Source of the DNA: Octopus vulgaris
Taxonomy: Eukaryota
Length of the DNA: 64,000 nucleotides
Direction of reading: 5' to 3'
Assembly (NCBI GenBank): GCA_951406725.2
Contig: OX597825.1
Location: forward strand, 45,012,001 to 45,076,000
Shown: positions 4,031 through 42,030 of the stretch, one piece after another
How positions within the stretch are numbered: position 1 is the first letter of the stretch
Layout: the number at the start of each line of letters is the position of its first letter
The notes under the pieces: model-generated
What the model was told of the DNA's origin: nothing
What the model saw: the letters and a program-made list of their open reading frames with translations, nothing else
The model's database searches: none
Position numbers and translations under genes: made by a program

Positions 4031-4074
<44 letters not shown>

Positions 4075-4075
<1 letters not shown>

Positions 4076-5660
4076 AGATAGGGGTTGAAAATTCAACCCA
4101 GCCATGGGATAATATATATCCAATATACTGCTAGATAGGTACCTCAACAAAATTAATACATAGATGTTAAAAATTGTCAAACAATCAGTTCATCCATTGT
4201 ATTATATCAAAGGTACATAAAATACTCGTAAATTAATACTACAAAATTAGAGAATGGAGAAACATACTTAAATCAGTAAAACATCAACTATCCGATGATA
4301 CTCAATCCATTTTAATACAGCCATTACATATGAGTCTTTAGTGTAATGGTCTTTGGTAGGACATAGGTACATCCTTCATTGATGAATTGATCAAGTATTT
4401 TCTCCATTCTTCTAGGGTGACATACATGATCACAAGGAACAAATATACTACACTAGGGTGTATTCACATGCACTATTAATATTTAAATCAATAAATGGAT
4501 GCTTATATTACACCAGTATGAGCAATTCAGGTTCCTCAAAAGATAAATTTAGGTTATAAAATGAGATAGGGGTTGAAAATTCAACCCACCATGGGATAAT
4601 ATATATCCAATATACTGCTAGATAGGTACCCAACAAAATTAATACATAGATGTTAAAAATTGTCAAACAATCAGTTCATCCATTGTATTATATGGGTAAA
4701 GGTAATAAAATTACCGTAAATTAATACTACAAAATTAGAGAATGGAGAAACATACTTAAATCAGTAAAACATCAACTATCCGATGATACTCAATCCATAC
4801 TTTAATACACCATTACATATGAGTTAGTGTAATGGTCTTTGGTAGGGATAGGTACATCCTTCATTGATGAATTGATCAGTATTTTCTCCATTCTTCTAGC
4901 AGTAATGATCAAAGGAACAAATATACTACACTAGGGTGTATTCACATGCACTATTAATATTTAAATCAATAAATGGATGCTTATATTACACCAGTATGAG
5001 CAATTCAGGTTCCTCAAAAGATAAATTTAGGTTATAAAATGAGATAGGGGTTGAAAATTCAACCCACCATGGGATAATATATATCCAATATACTGCTAGA
5101 TAGGTACCCAACAAAAATAATACATAGATGTTAAAAATTGTCAAACAATCAGTTCATCTATTGTATTAAATGGGTAAAGGTAATAAAATTACCGTAAATT
5201 AATACTACTTACCCATATAATACAATGGATGAACTGATTGTTTGACAATTTTTAACATCTATGTATTAATTTTGTTGGGTACCTATCTAGCAGTATATTG
5301 GATATATATTATCCCATGGTGGGTTGAATTTTCAACCCCTATCTCATTTTATAACCTAAATTTATCTTTTGAGGAACCTGAATTGCTCATACTGGTGTAA
5401 TATAAGCATCCATTTATTGATTTAAATATTAATAGTGCATGTGAATACACCCTAGTGTAGTATATTTGTTCCTTTGATCATTACTGCTAGAAGAATGGAG
5501 AAAATACTGATCAATTCATCAATGAAGGATGTACCTATCCCTACCAAAGACCATTACACTAAAGACTCATATGTAATGGTGTATTAAAGTATGGATTGAG
5601 TATCATCGGATAGTTGATGTTTTACTGATTTAAGTATGTTTCTCCATTCTCTAATTTTGT
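4075..5660. repeat. Tandem-then-inverted array of a ~478-bp unit flanked by (TA)n
   Basis: Units start GAGATAGGGGTTGAAAATTCAACCC at 4075, 4563 and 5041; 5209-5660 is the reverse complement of the unit. Confidence 0.95.
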
Positions 5661-28789: not shown

Positions 28790-31646
28790 CAGGGGTCTCC
28801 AAAGTTTTCCAGCGGAGGGCCACATTGCTGAATTTTTAAAGCTACGGGGGCCAAGGTTCTAAATTATTTATTTTACCAAAATAATATAAATAAATAGTGA
28901 ATTAATAATTAAAAAAGGTTATTTATTCAGTACATAATCACAATGTATATAATATCAGTAACAATTAACATGTTTTTTTTAACTTTGATCAATAGGGGAA
29001 ACATGAAATTGTTTCATTTCTGACAAAATTTTGTCCAACTGAGGTTCAAAATGAGTGGTTCCAATAACAAGCAATGCATTTAAATGTTCATCAGACAATT
29101 GTGATCTGTAGCGGGATTTTGTGTATTTCATCTTTGAAAAAGTCTTCTCACACAAATATGTGGTGCCAAAAACTGAAATGAATTCACAGGCAAACCTCCT
29201 TAAATGAAGAAATTGGTCGGATGGAAGGCATTTGTAGAATTCAATCAAATTTCCCTCTTTATATTTGTCCTTCAGGATGTCATTGGATTGCAAATCAATA
29301 ACTTCCATTTGTAACTCAGAAGGTAAGTCTCCAATAACAGAGTTAAATGGATTTTCAAAAATTCTTAGTTTTGAAGAACATGCATCAAGATCAGAAAAAC
29401 GTTCTTCAAACTGTTGTTTCAAAGCTAAAATGACATCTTGAGCAAACAAGTTTGGAAATGGAGTGGCAGCTTCCTGTCTATATTTGTCACATCGTGAAAA
29501 ATGAGTAAAGCAGCTTCTTGTTAACTGACTTTCAAATAGTATTAATTTCTTACAAAAAGCTTTCACCTTTGAGTACAAATCACAGATGAGTGAAGTTTCA
29601 CCTTGTATCCGTAGGTTGAAATCATTGAGATGCATAGTTAAATCGGCTGAAAATGCTAATTTCCAGAGCCATTCACTGTCTTTGAGCAACACCTGTGAAT
29701 GGTTTTTCTCATTTAAAAATATTTCAATTTCAGTTCGAAGCTCAAAAAATCTAGCCAGAATTTTTCCATAGCTAAGCCATCTTACTGAAGTATAGTAAGG
29801 TAGGTCTGGAAACTCAGCATTCATTTCCTCCAAGAAATCACGAAATTGGCGATGTTTGAGTCCATGAGATCTTATGTAGTTAACAGTAGAAATCACAGGA
29901 TCTAATACAGATGATAAATCAAGATGCTTTCCACACAGTGCTTGCTGATGAAGAATACAATGCAATACCAAAGGTTTCAATCCACCGGAATTCTCAATTA
30001 CTTTGTTAATTTGCCCAACTAAGCCCTTTTTGGTTCCACACATATTTCTGCCACCATCTGTTGTTATGCATTTTAGTTTTTTCCATTCCAAATTATACTC
30101 AGCCACTGACTTTTCCACTTCTCTAAAAATATCTATGCCTGTTGTTGTTCCATGCATGCTGTGCACAGATACAAGTTCCTCAGTAATCTCAAAATTGGCA
30201 TTTATTCCTCTGATGAACAATAACAATTGGGATGTGTCTGATACATCAATTGACTCATCAAGTGCAACAGAAAAGCATACAAACTTGCTGGCTTTGTCTT
30301 TTAGCTGTGATTTAATATTTCTTTCAATATGTTCAACCCTATGAGCAACAGTGTTCGCAGAAAGACTAATTGCGGAAAATAAATCTACGTTTTCTGGACA
30401 CATTTCCTTAGCTACCTCATTCAAGCACTTTTTAATAAGTTCACCATCTGTAAATGGCTTACCTTTCTTCGCCAAAAGGTTAGCAACATGGAAGCTTGCT
30501 CTTGTTGCTCTCTCTTTTTCTACAGCCTTCTTCTTGAAAACAAACTGCATTGATGATAAATTCTTCTTTAATTTGTCAAATTTCTCTTTACGTAGCTGTC
30601 CAATGAATTGGTAGTACTGTGATGAATGCTTTTTTTCATAATGTCTCCGAATGTTGTACTCTTTAAGTACTGCAATTGTGTCGGTGCATATAACGCATAG
30701 TGCCTTGTTGTTTGACTCTATGACAAAATAGTCTATGTTCCATTGTTCCTTAAAAACTCTACACTCAGAGTCGATTTTTCGTTTTCTTCCTTGAGCTAAC
30801 ATTTTTACCATGGGTCGACAGATTTTGCTCGACGATATATGTAAAAGGACGAAACAAGTAAAAACAATATTCACAGGTCACTCGATACGTGCATTCACTT
30901 CGGCAGCGACGACGACAAATGACTCACACTTGTGCACAACGAAAACGCCAAGTCTGTGCTGACTGACGGAATGCGCATCGAACTTTACTCCACGCTGATT
31001 GGCGACTGCACCAGGATTAGAAACCACCACACAACGTCAGGCTCAACCCTCTCTATTCATCGCTCGTGAGATGTAGGTAACATCGATAAATCGATATTTG
31101 TCTTCTTTTATTATACTAGGCACGGGACTTTTATTAACGTCATACTTGTCGTATCTGCTCTCTCGACAGTTGACGGAATAGGTTGACTTTTCTGCGACAT
31201 CAATAAAGCTAGAAATTGAATCTCTGCTTCATTGTAAGCAGCACCATCCATCTCACTGACATTCGCCTATTATCTAAGATGAATGATAGGTAGCTCCATA
31301 GCGAAGTTAATTCATTTTATGGTGGTTCTGATGGGTCAGTTAAAACGGGGGGAGTGGAAAAGAACCTATATTTACACTAAAGTTTAGTGTATAAATTTTT
31401 AATTCGCCGGCGCAATTTAAAGACATTAATTGATGGCAAATCAATTAGCGTCGTCTTGCGTCTATTTGCTGTACTATATTTGTCAAACGTATTAAAAGGG
31501 GTGTAAAGTATATTTGTTTTTGTATGATTTCGGCAAGGCTTGTTTTTCGACATTTGTTTTATAATTTTGGAGGACAGCTCGGCGGGCCGGATTAAAAACC
31601 TTGGCGGGCCGAATCCGGCCCGCGGGCCGTACTTTGGAGACCCCTG
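28790..31646 (-). mobile_element. Full-length hAT DNA transposon (Buster/Charlie group), 2857 bp
   Basis: Perfect 16-bp TIR CAGGGGTCTCCAAAGT at both ends; perfect 8-bp TSD CTCTAGTC (28782-28789, 31647-31654); GC-rich subterminal GGCCCGC repeats. Confidence 0.97.
28979..30811 (-). CDS. Intact hAT transposase, ~610 aa from the ATG at 30811 (GTF2IRD2/SPIN/OC1-like family)
   Basis: BED-type finger CVIC..RRHYEKKH, ALDES, ITTDG, HCILHQ, VRWLS, TYLCEKTFS, RSQLSDEHL; no stops. Confidence 0.95.
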   Translation of the reverse strand: MVKMLAQGRKRKIDSECRVFKEQWNIDYFVIESNNKALCVICTDTIAVLKEYNIRRHYEKKHSSQYYQFIGQLRKEKFDKLKKNLSSMQFVFKKKAVEKERATRASFHVANLLAKKGKPFTDGELIKKCLNEVAKEMCPENVDLFSAISLSANTVAHRVEHIERNIKSQLKDKASKFVCFSVALDESIDVSDTSQLLLFIRGINANFEITEELVSVHSMHGTTTGIDIFREVEKSVAEYNLEWKKLKCITTDGGRNMCGTKKGLVGQINKVIENSGGLKPLVLHCILHQQALCGKHLDLSSVLDPVISTVNYIRSHGLKHRQFRDFLEEMNAEFPDLPYYTSVRWLSYGKILARFFELRTEIEIFLNEKNHSQVLLKDSEWLWKLAFSADLTMHLNDFNLRIQGETSLICDLYSKVKAFCKKLILFESQLTRSCFTHFSRCDKYRQEAATPFPNLFAQDVILALKQQFEERFSDLDACSSKLRIFENPFNSVIGDLPSELQMEVIDLQSNDILKDKYKEGNLIEFYKCLPSDQFLHLRRFACEFISVFGTTYLCEKTFSKMKYTKSRYRSQLSDEHLNALLVIGTTHFEPQLDKILSEMKQFHVSPIDQS

Positions 31647-35226: not shown

Positions 35227-35377
35227 CTACAATGTCACAAATCCTGCATATCTGGTTATTCTCTTGAATATTAAAAAAATTTATATTGTTCCTAATATAT
35301 TCTGGATAACCTAAAGATGGCATATGTATAACAACTCGCTTCGAATTTTGAATTCGTTTCCATGAAGTTCGGAATCC
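35227..35377 (-). CDS. IQCH: IQCH-like exon A (151 nt): GFRTSWKRIQNSKRVVIHMPSLGYPEYIRNNINFFNIQENNQICRICDIV
   Basis: TTCCAG acceptor, GTGAGT donor, phase 0 to 1; resembles W.RIRTSRRTIIHIPSLGY..QQN.Q..RLCDI; not in the ORF track. Confidence 0.9.
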
Positions 35378-35458
35378 CTGGAATATTGGAAATAAGATAA
35401 GTGATTTGCCAAAAGCTTATATATGTATACATACTTACACTCATATAGTCATGTGTAC

Positions 35459-35509
<51 letters not shown>

Positions 35510-35781
35510 CATGTATATATATATATATATATATAAAATTAATTAAGGGTAGAAATTGATATTTATCAATTAAGACCAGTGGTCTAGCATGTTAAAAAAG
35601 AATCCGAAGATTAAAATATTTATATATACCAATTAAGGACTGAACACGAAAAGTGGACAGTCAACATGCTAGATATAGACGTCAAATCGTCATTCTCCAC
35701 AAAAGATTATGTTCTCAGATCAAACTCAACACAAAACCATAGCAATAAACAAGTGAAAAATATACGAAATAAAATAATTAC

Positions 35782-35846
35782 CCATGTACTAACTTAGTTT
35801 CAGCTGTTATTTTCCGCAAGGAAAACTGCAGCCATCATCAGTATGG
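35782..35846 (-). ncRNA. Type I hammerhead ribozyme motif, copy 1 (stem I A-C mismatch)
   Basis: Minus strand reads CCATA CTGATGA TGGCTG..CAGCT GAAA CTAAGTTAG TA CATGG. Confidence 0.75.
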
Positions 35847-36286
35847 TCCGTTATAAATGTAATTTGCTGGACTAAATGCAAACACGATACCGAAATATCG
35901 CGTGCATGGAGTTCAGCCTATTACATTTGAATATATCTTTCAAATGCCTTTACTTTGGCGCGTTGAGACCCGAGAAAACTAGCCTGCAGCTAATAATTAG
36001 CAGCAGTTAATTTATCGGTTAGAGAACATTTATTTATATAAAATTAATTAAGGGTAGAAATTGATATTTATCAATTAAGACCAGTGGTCTAGCATATTAA
36101 AAAAGAATCCGAAGATTAAAATATTTATATATACCAATTAAGGACTGAACACGAAAAGTGGACAGTCAACATGCTAGATATAGACGTCAAATCGTCATTC
36201 TCCACAAAAGATTATGTTCTCAGATCAAACTCAACACAAAACCATAGCAATAAACAAGTGAAAAATATACGAAATAAAATAATTAC

Positions 36287-36351
36287 CCATGTACTAACTT
36301 AGTTTCAGCTGTTATTTTCCGCAAGGAAAACTGCAGCCATCATCAGCGTGG
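36287..36351 (-). ncRNA. Type I hammerhead ribozyme motif, copy 2 (stem I C-A mismatch)
   Basis: CCACG CTGATGA..GAAA CTAAGTTAG TA CATGG. Confidence 0.75.
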
Positions 36352-36791
36352 TCCGTTATAAATGTAATTTGCTGGACTAAATGCAAACACGATACCGAAA
36401 TATCGCGTGCATGGAGTTCAGCCTATTACATTTGAATATATCTTTCAAATGCCTTTACTTTGGCGCGTTGAGACCCGAGAAAACTAGCCTGCAGCTAATA
36501 ATTAGCAGCAGTTAATTTATCGGTTAGAGAACATTTATTTATATAAAATTAATTAAGGGTAGAAATTGATATTTATCAATTAAGACCAGTGGTCTAGCAT
36601 ATTAAAAAAGAATCCGAAGATTAAAATATTTATATATACCAATTAAGGACTGAACACGAAAAGTGGACAGTCAACATGCTAGATATAGACGTCAAATCGT
36701 CATTCTCCACAAAAGATTATGTTCTCAGATCAAACTCAACACAAAACCATAGCAATAAACAAGTGAAAAATATACGAAATAAAATAATTAC

Positions 36792-36856
36792 CCATGTACT
36801 AACTTAGTTTCAGCTGTTATTTTCCGCAAGGAAAACTGCAGCCATCATCAGCGTGG
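36792..36856 (-). ncRNA. Type I hammerhead ribozyme motif, copy 3 (stem I C-A mismatch)
   Basis: Same as copy 2. Confidence 0.75.
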
Positions 36857-37358
36857 TCCGTTATAAATGTAATTTGCTGGACTAAATGCAAACACGATAC
36901 CGAAATATCGCGTGCATGGAGTTCAGCCTATTACATTTGAATATATCTTTCAAATGCCTTTACTTTGGCGCGTTGAGACCCGAGAAAACTAGCCTGCAGC
37001 TAATAATTAGCAGCAGTTAATTTATCGGTTAGAGAACATTTGTCCACTTTTCGTGTTCAGTCCTTAATTGGTATATATAAATATTTTAATCTTCGGATTC
37101 TTTTTTAATATGCTAGACCACTGGTCTTAATTGATAAATATCAATTTCTACCCTTAATTAATTTTATATAAATAAATGTTCTCTAACCGATAAATTAACT
37201 GCTGCTAATTATTAGCTGCAGGCTAGTTTTCTCGGGTCTCAACGCGCCAAAGTAAAGGCATTTGAAAGATATATTCAAATGTAATAGGCTGAACTCCATG
37301 CACGCGATATTTCGGTATCGTGTTTGCATTTAGTCCAGCAAATTACATTTATAACGGA

Positions 37359-37423
37359 CCATGCTGATGATGGCTGCAGTTTTCCTTGCGGAAAATAACA
37401 GCTGAAACTAAGTTAGTACATGG
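37359..37423 (+). ncRNA. Type I hammerhead ribozyme motif, copy 4; predicted GUA cleavage after 37418
   Basis: CCATG CTGATGA T GGCTG CAG TTTTCC TTGC GGAAAA TAA CAGCT GAAA CTAAGTTAG TA CATGG: complete core with stems I, II and III. Confidence 0.85.
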
Positions 37424-37863
37424 GTAATTATTTTATTTCGTATATTTTTCACTTGTTTATTGCTATGGTTTTGTGTTGAGTTTGATCTGAGAACATAATC
37501 TTTTGTGGAGAATGACGATTTGACGTCTATATCTAGCATGTTGACTGTCCACTTTTCGTGTTCAGTCCTTAATTGGTATATATAAATATTTTAATCTTCG
37601 GATTCTTTTTTAATATGCTAGACCACTGGTCTTAATTGATAAATATCAATTTCTACCCTTAATTAATTTCATATAAATAAATGTTCTCTAACCGATAAAT
37701 TAACTGCTGCTAATTATTAGCTGCAGGCTAGTTTTCTCGTGTCTCAACGCGCCAAAGTAAAAGCATTTGAAAGATATATTCAAATGTAATAGGCTGAACT
37801 CCATGCACGCGATATTTCGGTATCGTGTTTGCATTTAGTCCAGCAAATTACATTTATAACGGA

Positions 37864-37928
37864 CCATGCTGATGATGGCTGCAGTTTTCCTTGCGGAAAA
37901 TAACAGCTGAAACTAAGTTAGTACATGG
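37864..37928 (+). ncRNA. Type I hammerhead ribozyme motif, copy 5
   Basis: Identical to copy 4. Confidence 0.85.
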
Positions 37929-38368
37929 GTAATTATTTTATTTCGTATATTTTTCACTTGTTTATTGCTATGGTTTTGTGTTGAGTTTGATCTGAGAACA
38001 TAATCTTTTGTGGAGAATGACGATTTGACGTCTATATCTAGCATGTTGACTGTCCACTTTTCGTGTTCAGTCCTTAATTGGTATATATAAATATTTTAAT
38101 CTTCGGATTCTTTTTTAATATGCTAGACCACTGGTCTTAATTGATAAATATCAATTTCTACCCTTAATTAATTTCATATAAATAAATGTTCTCTAACCGA
38201 TAAATTAACTGCTGCTAATTATTAGCTGCAGGCTAGTTTTCTCGGGTCTCAACGCGCCAAAGTAAAAGCATTTGAAAGATATATTCAAATGTAATAGGCT
38301 GAACTCCATGCACGCGATATTTCGGTATCGTGTTTGCATTTAGTCCAGCAAATTACATTTATAACGGA

Positions 38369-38433
38369 CCATGCTGATGATGGCTGCAGTTTTCCTTGCG
38401 GAAAATAACAGCTAAAACTAAGTTAGTACATGG
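38369..38433 (+). ncRNA. Hammerhead motif copy 6, GAAA changed to AAAA at 38414 (predicted inactive)
   Basis: Reads CAGCTAAAACTAAG instead of CAGCTGAAACTAAG. Confidence 0.7.
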
Positions 38434-38873
38434 GTAATTATTTTATTTCGTATATTTTTCACTTGTTTATTGCTATGGTTTTGTGTTGAGTTTGATCTGA
38501 GAACATAATCTTTTGTGGAGAATGACGATTTGACGTCTATATCTAGCATGTTGACTGTCCACTTTTCGTGTTCAGTCCTTAATTGGTATATATAAATATT
38601 TTAATCTTCGGATTCTTTTTTAATATGCTAGACCACTGGTCTTAATTGATAAATATCAATTTCTACCCTTAATTAATTTTATATAAATAAATGTTCTCTA
38701 ACCGATAAATTAACTGCTGCTAATTATTAGCTGCAGGCTAGTTTTCTCGGGTCTCAACGCGCCAAAGTAAAGGCATTTGAAAGATATATTCAAATGTAAT
38801 AGGCTGAACTCCATGCACGCGATATTTCGGTATCGTGTTTGCATTTAGTCCAGCAAATTACATTTATAACGGA

Positions 38874-38938
38874 CCATGCTGATGATGGCTGCAGTTTTCC
38901 TTGCAGAAAATAACAGCTGAAACTAAGTTAGTACATGG
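38874..38938 (+). ncRNA. Type I hammerhead ribozyme motif, copy 7
   Basis: Core intact; one substitution in the distal stem II hairpin (TTGCAGAAAA). Confidence 0.82.
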
Positions 38939-39093
38939 GTAATTATTTTATTTCGTATATTTTTCACTTGTTTATTGCTATGGTTTTGTGTTGAGTTTGA
39001 TCTGAGAACATAATCTTTTGTGGAGAATGACGATTTGACGTCTATATCTAGCATGTTGACTGTCCACTTTTCGTGTTCAGTCCTTAATTGGTA

Positions 39094-39260
39094 TCATCAT
39101 CATCATCATCATCATCGTTTAACGTCCGCTTTCCATGCTAGCATGGGTTGGACGGTTCAACTGGGGTCTGGGAAGCCCGAAGGCTGCACCAGGCCAGTCA
39201 GATGTGGCAGTGTTTCTACAGCTGGATGCCCTTCCTAACGCCAACCACTCCGAGAGTGTA
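39094..39260 (-). mobile_element. Short RTE 3'-end fragment with (GAT)n tail at the edge of the array
   Basis: (CAT)n followed by CGTTTAACGTCCGCTTTCCATGCTAGCATGGGTTGGACGG. Confidence 0.85.
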
Positions 39261-39515
39261 GGTATATATATATATATATATAATAATAAAATATTAGGGA
39301 ATAAATCCAAACTTACAGGGAAAAATCAGATTTAGGATTAAATCCAATTTTATAGTATAAATATATTATATTATATTATATTAAATTAGAGATAAAACCA
39401 CTATTAGGCAAATCAAACAATGAAAAACATAAGCCAATACATAAAATTAATTAATTTATATTATTTTAAATATATATCAAAAGTATTAAAAGTTTAATAA
39501 AAGATAAAGAGTAAA

Positions 39516-39644
39516 ACAGCGTGTGTATATAAGAATTTTTTGTAATGAGATAAAAAACCAAGGCTGTGTAGATATGTTCTAATATCTACACAGCCTTGGT
39601 TTTTTTATCTCATTAAGCAAAAAATTATTATATACATACGCTGT
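39516..39644. repeat. Near-perfect hairpin with ~60-bp arms and a ~6-nt loop
   Basis: AATGAGATAAAAAACCAAGGCTGTGTAGATAT-gttcta-ATATCTACACAGCCTTGGTTTTTTTATCTCATT. Confidence 0.9.
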
Positions 39645-40267
39645 AAGAATTTAATGTCTGAGACAAATTGTTGTTAATAAGATTATAATTTTTCAAACTT
39701 AGACCATAGAACCAACATTGAACCCCTTATTCGCAAAATTACCGAATCTGGAAGTTAACTATTGTCTGTCTATAGCACTTATTCAGCATTACCTGACACC
39801 TTTGGGTTTCAAAGACACCATATATATATATAATAAATTTCTGAGCGAGGTATAAACAGTAGCGGCGCGACATCATGAAGTATATTTGCCACATTTAGGT
39901 GGAAAATATACTTCGCGATATATATATATACTAACAGAAATACCCGGCCTTGCTCGGGATTGAAATGGCATAGATTTTTATTGTTTTACTTGTTTCAGTC
40001 ATGTGACTGCAGCCATGCAGGAGCACTGCTGTTGGGCGAAGAAATCAACCACAAGATTTATTTGTTGTAATCCTAGTACTCATTCTGTGAGTGTCTTTTA
40101 CCAAACCACTAAGTTATGGGAATGTAAACACAGCAACATCAGTTGTCAAGCAATGGTGGAGGTACAGACACAAGATACATGCACACACATATATACAACA
40201 GTCTTCTTTCAGCTTCTGAGTACGAAATCCACTTATGAGGTTTTGGTCGGCCTGAGGCTATAATAAG

Positions 40268-41359: not shown

Positions 41360-42030
41360 CAGATATATATCAACAAGAGGAAACTAAACAAGGGCTCAAG
41401 CATTACCCCCAGTGAACCCTCAACTAATGGATCTGTGTACAATGCTCACTCGACTGACTCCCAGGAAGGGACAAGCATAGGAACCCATAGCATGGACCTA
41501 TCCAAAAATAATAACAACCAAATCTTAAGTAACCCAAAGAGCCCACACAGCAACAATTTAGTGAACACAAACCAACATGTAATGAGAACGAACGGACAAA
41601 CTGAATACAACCACCAGTCACTAACAACAGCCAGCAATAGGTGCTTGTGTAGGGACAAATCAAGATGCCCACTTGGTAATCTCTGCATGACTCACAACCT
41701 CATATATAAATGCACAGTACACACATGAGGAAGACTGTATGTGTGTACTGTACCACATCTGCAACCACATCTCAAGCTTTGAAAAAATAACTAAGAGACA
41801 TACAACATCACTGGCAGATTTTCTGTGGAAACTAAAATCAGAAAACATCAACTATGAACTATTCCGGGCACTTTTGGACATGAACAACCATACAACATCC
41901 TTCCTAGGAGGAGTGGGTTGTGCTTGGAAGAATCTTTGTCCATTTTACTGAGTAGAAGAAGAGTAATTAACAAATTAACTGAATGGACTGCAAAATGCAT
42001 ACACATCAAGAAACCACCTACAGTACAACA
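41360..42030 (+). pseudogene. Penelope-like element GIY-YIG endonuclease remnant
   Basis: CLCRDKSRCPLGNLCMTHNLIYKCTV, then (frameshifted) NHISSF..TSLADFLWKLK..INY and CLEE..IL..INK.TE..KCIH, the motif order of PLE endonucleases. Confidence 0.75.

Follow-up and report, generated by a model that had tools for sequence, protein, structure and literature searches.

A 505-nt non-coding unit repeated seven times in an intron of the Octopus vulgaris IQCH gene probably represents one young retrozyme insertion, likely copied into a (TA)n tract by a Neptune-type Penelope-like reverse transcriptase (RT)/endonuclease that primed both target strands on one RNA, probably a circle. Comparison of genomic copies demonstrates the size of the family, its (TA)n target, the rule by which insertions end at two different sites (A and B), the haplotypes shared by the two arms of an insertion and the patterns in which these arms stop. 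The array was found in a stretch of 64,000 nucleotides (contig OX597825.1, positions 45,012,001 to 45,076,000), hereafter the window, to which positions refer unless otherwise indicated.

The array and its host intron

A previous sequence-only reading of the window had described a seven-copy array of a 505-bp unit that flips near 37041, bordered by (TA)n on the left and by an RTE tail and then (TA)n on the right, within a gene intron. The copies (three minus-sense and four plus-sense, with 99-100% identity), the flip and both edges were confirmed. The intronic location was borne out as well, with exons of the host gene, IQCH (an 87% match to a named Octopus bimaculoides protein), on both flanks of the array; the gene is on the minus strand, the intron spans ~65 kb and the exon on the other flank (residues 418-497, minus strand) is at C12:45112706-945. 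The main features are as follows:

35227..35377, minus strand: IQCH exon, residues ~494-545 of P0001, with its acceptor ~150 nt from the left arm
35459..35529: left target tract, (TA)n/(TG)n
35530..37041, minus strand: left arm, three whole 505-nt units, with its end at putative priming site A (..CCCTTAATTAATTTTATA) against (TA)n
37041: head-to-head junction, one base common to both arms; the left arm stops at unit position 1 and the right arm at 373
37041..39094, plus strand: right arm, 133 nt, three whole units and 406 nt, with its end at putative priming site B (..GTCCTTAATTGGTAT)
37577..37675, plus strand: one example of the "tail", from site B (TATATATA) to site A (TATATA), ~92 nt apart
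39095..39261, minus strand: young 3′ fragment, which we take to be RTE, with a (GAT)n tail and GTAT at 39091-39094 and 39262-39265
39262..39282: right target tract, (TA)n

The 3′ fragment, presumptively labelled RTE from open reading frames (ORFs), is identical at 169/169 positions to a copy on another contig; since GTAT is also present on both sides, it likely entered the B end after the array had been inserted. Adjacent units of the array share private changes, which indicates that some units were duplicated after insertion and that part of the multimer would be of such local origin.

Several other elements were observed in the window. A second two-armed array (4073-5660) with an unrelated ~478-nt unit has (TA)n tracts on either side and two different ends, and no hammerhead core was found in it by motif scan. 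To the right of the 505-nt array, a short head-to-head element (39270-39830, 98.7% alike to a copy in L279) is located between (TA)n tracts, and this (TA)n region is a nest of insertions. On the minus strand, an open 632-aa frame (28979-30877) presumably resembles a hAT/GTF2IRD2-type transposase, and a 453-aa Cys-rich frame (1107-2468) is likely a LINE ORF1.

The hammerhead motif

The hammerhead motifs of the array, all 65 nt long, are listed below:

37359..37423, plus strand: intact; core CTGATGA at 37364, predicted cut after 37418
37864..37928, plus strand: intact; core at 37869, predicted cut after 37923
38369..38433, plus strand: GAAA changed to AAAA (G12 to A at 38414); core at 38374, likely inactive
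38874..38938, plus strand: core intact, one outer change in the stem II hairpin (38905); core at 38879, predicted cut after 38933
36792..36856, minus strand: host-sense, stem I C.A mismatch (36853); core at 36851, predicted cut after 36797
36287..36351, minus strand: host-sense, same stem I C.A mismatch (36348); core at 36346, predicted cut after 36292
35782..35846, minus strand: host-sense, A.C mismatch at the pair beside the cut site (35842); core at 35841, predicted cut after 35787

A type I hammerhead with a GUA site had been proposed for every unit, with cleavage 3′ of 37418. The motif is present in all seven copies, and six of them have the full type I core (CUGANGA, GAAA and NUH in order, three stems, GUA site), which supports this topology; the core layout gives the same cut position, which corresponds to unit position 245. 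However, GAAA is changed in one copy and stem I is mismatched in the three minus-sense copies. The role of G12 in the hammerhead core is well established, hence the designation of the copy at 38369..38433 as likely inactive. The unit hammerhead departs from the usual core by one additional U after CUGAUGA, before stem II, and by a G.U pair that closes stem II. With the Rfam models suggested as a check, nothing in the window reached the gathering score, and 35400-39300 contained no hammerhead match at E<=10.

RNA folding predicts that a lone core will misfold, with a stem III probability of 0.02-0.05, and the minimum-energy fold of two copies is a double hammerhead formed via ACUAAGUUAGU (-45.0 vs 2 x -19.4 kcal/mol). 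Cleavage is predicted only for the dimer, and the dimer-type short stem III of the earlier reading is supported by these models. Compared with shuffled sequences, the monomer from cut to cut is much more stable (z=-7.65, 0/100), also as a circle (z=-6.4).

Covariation had been named as a further check, and all three stems co-vary across related families that are 61-80% alike (read by eye from tables): CCATG/CATGG vs CTATG/CATAG vs GATCACA/TGTGATT in stem I, GCTG/CAGC vs CTTG/CAAG vs GTTG/CAAC in stem II and ACTAAGTTAGT vs ACTAATTAGT vs ACCAATTGGT in stem III. Among private changes, which arose after insertion, no purifying selection on the hammerhead was detected (13/102 are located there vs 8.7% expected), nor were A-to-G changes overrepresented (6 A>G, 11 T>C).

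A dispersed family of recent insertions

A 38-nt hammerhead pattern with up to two mismatches has 523 matches in the genome and none in a reversed control, which excludes chance. Exact patterns identified at least 421 A ends and at least 619 B ends next to (TA)n, also with reversed controls of 0, and a DNA search detected at least 223 unit matches from the best 38 of 1,677 candidates. The insertions are dispersed genome-wide as monomers to multimers, in agreement with the dispersed arrays that had been anticipated. The unit has a GC content of 33% and a tandem layout without LTRs, and no ORF was found in it or, at the 58 loci with long flanks, joined to it. Assignment to the retrozymes, also made previously, is supported by this dispersed, non-coding, low-GC tandem unit with a type I hammerhead; the family is best described as a young, several-hundred-copy 505-nt non-coding hammerhead repeat of an already known class.

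Tandem and inverted repeats with so little divergence pose difficulties for assembly, and an assembly artefact or a locally amplified satellite would produce a similar picture at a single locus. We regard this as extremely improbable, considering that more than 100 dispersed insertions have the same end rule and different junctions, that each array has private variants and that contigs from independent runs contain the unit, its (TA)n ends and an inversion joint.

Two older relatives were identified, one 61% alike over the whole unit and the other intermediate. Their hammerheads occupy the same place in the unit, with all three stems changed and pairs kept; in 13 rows of the intermediate family, stem I is whole in eight and mismatched in five, as expected for older copies. 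At one locus (L053:2230-2520), an array of the 505-nt family has entered the B end of an insertion belonging to an older sister family.

A broad hammerhead pattern has 6,747 matches including those of the 505-nt family. A second hammerhead family (L068-L097), with ~6,200 matches, has a minimal two-pair stem III and often occurs as back-to-back pairs; it was considered as a partner and rejected, as its context is different and it adjoins Poseidon-like coding remnants.

Two different ends on one haplotype

Insertion ends were examined in two sets of loci. The length/hammerhead-selected set (n=58) contains 37 loci identified by full-unit match, 20 by hammerhead match and the window, whereas the end-selected set (n=90) was drawn from the pattern matches in listed order, with 30 A ends from the top of the 421 and 60 B ends from among the first 90; the B ends passed over were already represented in the data, ~8 of them by long loci, which gives this set a slight bias to short insertions. 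There were 41 A+B, 15 single-armed and 2 odd loci in the former and 67 A+B, 1 A+A, 1 B+B, 17 single and 4 other loci in the latter. After merging, 103 of 108 unique head-to-head junctions were A+B, the others being one A+A, three with an odd end and one cut by a locus edge. These counts support the Penelope-type tandem and inverted structure noted before and indicate that the inverted layout is not incidental: it is the usual form of insertion, with two fixed, different ends. Site B lies ~92 nt upstream of site A in the unit, both sites are TA-rich like the target, and overlaps at the junctions are mostly 0-6 nt.

The haplotypes of the two arms agree at 59/64 informative sites (17% mean and 34% maximum on permutation), including variants private to a single locus, although gene conversion between arms could contribute to such agreement. 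The stops of the two arms are no more than 5 nt apart in 20/65 junctions of the end-selected set (4.2 on permutation, maximum 11), a count that includes arms stopping at the same base; in the length-selected set, equal stops occur in 3/41 (p=0.09, not significant) and arm lengths are not correlated (rho 0.24, p=0.13). Shared haplotypes and equal stops would both be accounted for if a single cDNA snapped back at its 3′ end and copied itself until a TA-rich site joined the other target end. Some equal stops do fall on short palindromes (CAGCTG, GACGTC, GATC, TTAA), and self-priming has been proposed for palindromic junctions of Penelope (in the discussion of junctions in PMC3846280). Nevertheless, such a fold-back origin is unlikely, since stops are unequal in 45/65 junctions, A arms made of the tail alone and joined to B arms of ~100 nt cannot be mutual copies, and the near-absence of A+A or B+B would be left without a reason.

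The stops themselves are not evenly placed. In the end-selected set, A arms pile up at site B, with 10 stops at 385-412 vs 7 in 91 flanking nt (p=0.002), and 39/58 B-arm stops are at 283-345 (median 308), approximately one tail length from B. Uniform 5′ breaks (KS p=0.35) were considered and rejected: this picture arose from the choice of long or hammerhead-bearing loci and was overturned by the end-selected set. In other families, only four unselected cases bear on the stop zone, too few for its prediction there. Stops at the A site that follow one full turn are also weakly enriched (7 vs 17, p=0.03, post hoc), and the left arm in the window stops just after a full turn.

By contrast, arm ends do not pile up at the predicted cut (4/44 in the end-selected set and 5/101 in the 58-locus set), and the whole hammerhead span is present in only 25/90 end-selected loci. 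Both findings would suit the same element and enzyme using an uncut linear multimer transcript as template, with the hammerhead playing a minor part and multimers kept by local duplication; private changes common to adjacent units, in the window and in other arrays, point the same way. Moreover, hammerhead cleavage appears dispensable for insertion in vitro, where hammerhead mutants insert normally (as described in PMC11167929), and 8/9 Xenopus dimers did not cleave (according to the account in 10.64898/2026.07.22.740005). Together with the extra U and G.U of the core, these two reports count against our preferred explanation. On the other hand, array-fixed variants, common to all units of one array and different between arrays, indicate a monomer bottleneck, and the co-varying stems and the excess of stops after a full turn also disfavor a linear template, which we consider possible but doubtful.

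A proposed model of insertion on a probably circular template

We infer the following steps for the preferred reading, i.e., priming of both target strands on one, probably circular, RNA. Multimeric transcripts would self-cleave via the double hammerhead, and the 505-nt monomer would be circularised. The enzyme would then nick both target strands, and one cDNA would start at site A and the other at site B. Both RTs would travel the same way, and after approximately one tail length the trailing RT would meet the B primer, with three possible outcomes: abortion (an A arm consisting of the tail only), catch-up (both arms stopping at the same base) or run-on, which round the template would yield multimers. 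The two cDNA ends would be joined head-to-head by microhomology, and some units would be duplicated locally afterwards.

The arm footprint suggests two primers and two RTs on one RNA. It has a precedent in a Poseidon protein that extends both strands in vitro and starts at two internal sites bounding the tail (in the experiments reported in PMC11167929). However, the 280-340 stop zone, which coincides with entry into a long helix predicted by folding, could also result from a structural stall or from RNA that is trimmed at its 5′ end.

Candidate helper enzymes

Two young, intact families encoding an RT and a GIY-YIG endonuclease were identified, with open frames of 727 (L178-L207) and 717 residues (L243, L250-L263). 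Both occur in full-length head-to-tail tandems, have two sites (71 and 67 nt apart, respectively) at which they terminate in (TA)n and contain hammerhead-type motifs whose stem III is palindromic. Alignment of their frames (L181, L243) showed motifs of an RT, a Cys-rich linker and, at the C terminus, GIY-YIG with CCHH, an order that would fit the Neptune clade, and a Pfam search of the two ORFs gave no match. One A and one B end were found in 5/5 loci of the 727-aa family with both ends visible (four by motif, L203 by alignment), and in 6/9 loci of the 717-aa family (one A+A, one B+B and one other). The hammerhead cores of the two families are unusual (A.A at the base of stem II; CCGAAGA).

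Neither family matches the unit in sequence. The unit tail has no significant match to the 727-aa family (295/2000 shuffles score as well), and the unit has only AT-rich matches to the 717-aa family. A shared ACCACTGGT motif between the unit tail and the 727-aa family looked suggestive and failed the shuffle test. We infer a Neptune-type helper from insertion behaviour only, with no sequence match. A decayed Neptune-like endonuclease remnant, with a Cys-rich linker and CCHH, is located in the window at 41567-42020 (plus strand), with 5,363 candidates genome-wide; as a lead to the partner, the remnant (41600-42020) was rejected because its copies are old and have unrelated ends.

The unit shares its layout with the pseudo-LTRs that form the ends of both intact families, and it might thus be a solo pseudo-LTR of an autonomous Penelope-like element not yet found, the more so as the protein searches for helpers scored only the best 59 and 63 of ~35,000 candidates. 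This is quite improbable in our opinion: none of the 58 long-flank loci runs on into an ORF, and the unit copies attached to Penelope ORFs that the sequence-only reading had named as a check did not appear there; units are joined head-to-tail in exact phase; and the two older sister families also have unit-to-unit junctions.

Host transcription and RNA

The IQCH pre-mRNA reads the right arm antisense and then the left arm sense, and the two arms could form a 1.5-kb duplex in it. Of the hammerheads, host read-through thus includes as sense just the three in which stem I is mismatched, preceded by 2 kb of complementary sequence, whereas the intact ones are antisense. The idea that read-through transcripts would be cut into monomers is therefore weakened at this locus, and the window copy is more likely a product than a monomer source; it is probably a long run-on product.

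Stem I is mismatched in 3/3 host-sense copies (two mutations, one of them duplicated), and elsewhere it is changed in 2/200 copies of whatever host orientation, some loci being counted twice. This post hoc comparison hints at selection against cutting of the pre-mRNA. If host-facing hammerheads were indeed crippled before retention, this would show that the ribozymes cut host transcripts in the animal. We tentatively put forward a fuller scenario, for which we see appreciable but less than even chances: two RTs start in step on a single circular RNA, one for each target strand, at sites one tail apart, the size classes of insertions (tail-only arm, equal stops, run-on multimers) follow from their collision, and the intronic insertion was kept by the host only after all three host-facing hammerheads had been crippled.

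Closed 535-nt contigs, one each, were found in runs X2 and X6 (one study, guessed to be RNA) and X15 (another organism, RNA or DNA). They equal 505 + 30 nt, have different variants and fit a single circle or a uniform multimer, of RNA or DNA. None of the runs listed as containing the unit is recorded as RNA, and contig depth was not taken as copy number or expression. In run X1, contigs on the unit add up to a depth thousands of times that of single-copy flank and above what the assembly count suggests, depth not being equivalent to copy number.

Relation to known systems

In LINE-1 twin priming, a second primer on the same RNA produces an inverted arm, and one cDNA stops at the site of the other primer. 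The priming sites proposed here differ in being fixed and internal, and the arms often overrun each other by several units.

As far as the published descriptions extend (PMC7229834; 10.64898/2026.07.22.740005), animal non-LTR retrozymes resemble the 505-nt family in their non-coding tandem unit, type I hammerhead with a weak stem III, self-paired monomer and co-occurrence with Penelope-like elements. Their units are given as 170-400 nt (Cervera and de la Pena 2020, PMC7229834) or 51-972 nt (Li, Clavereau, Pollet, bioRxiv 10.64898/2026.07.22.740005), compared with 505 nt here, and in these descriptions they differ from our family, which usually has two back-to-back arms with fixed different ends and an extra U after CUGAUGA. 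Endonuclease-containing (EN+) Penelope-like elements of the Neptune type share with the array partial tandems, an inverted 5′-truncated copy, a tail at one end, a microsatellite target and a hammerhead near the end (in the structural accounts of PMC8557442 and PMC3846280), whereas the 505-nt family is without an ORF and has a tail of ~92 nt vs 30-40 nt (Craig et al. 2021, Arkhipova et al. 2013). PAc Poseidon likewise has two tail-bounding internal RT starts, extension of both strands and an AT-rich target; however, the passages on start sites in Frangieh et al. 2024 (PMC11167929) report no difference between strands in vitro and a start at a site that lacks homology to the target, whereas here there is one site per strand on one haplotype, and both sites resemble the target in being TA-rich.

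Published work thus already covers retrozymes and their link to Penelope, copies in inverted orientation, one-sided tails and two internal start sites (in the main accounts of PMC7229834, 10.64898/2026.07.22.740005, PMC8557442, PMC3846280, PMC7761336 and PMC11167929). A literature search of article texts found no paper on an octopus or cephalopod retrozyme and no account of a per-insertion A+B rule or collision pattern.

The 505-nt family would extend retrozymes to cephalopods and addresses the questions of how Penelope-like inverted repeats and one-sided tails arise and how retrozymes return to DNA. Its hundreds of near-identical young insertions provide counts that separate integration models, with the prediction that the stop zone moves with tail length, and its value lies in this countable footprint of Penelope-type integration.
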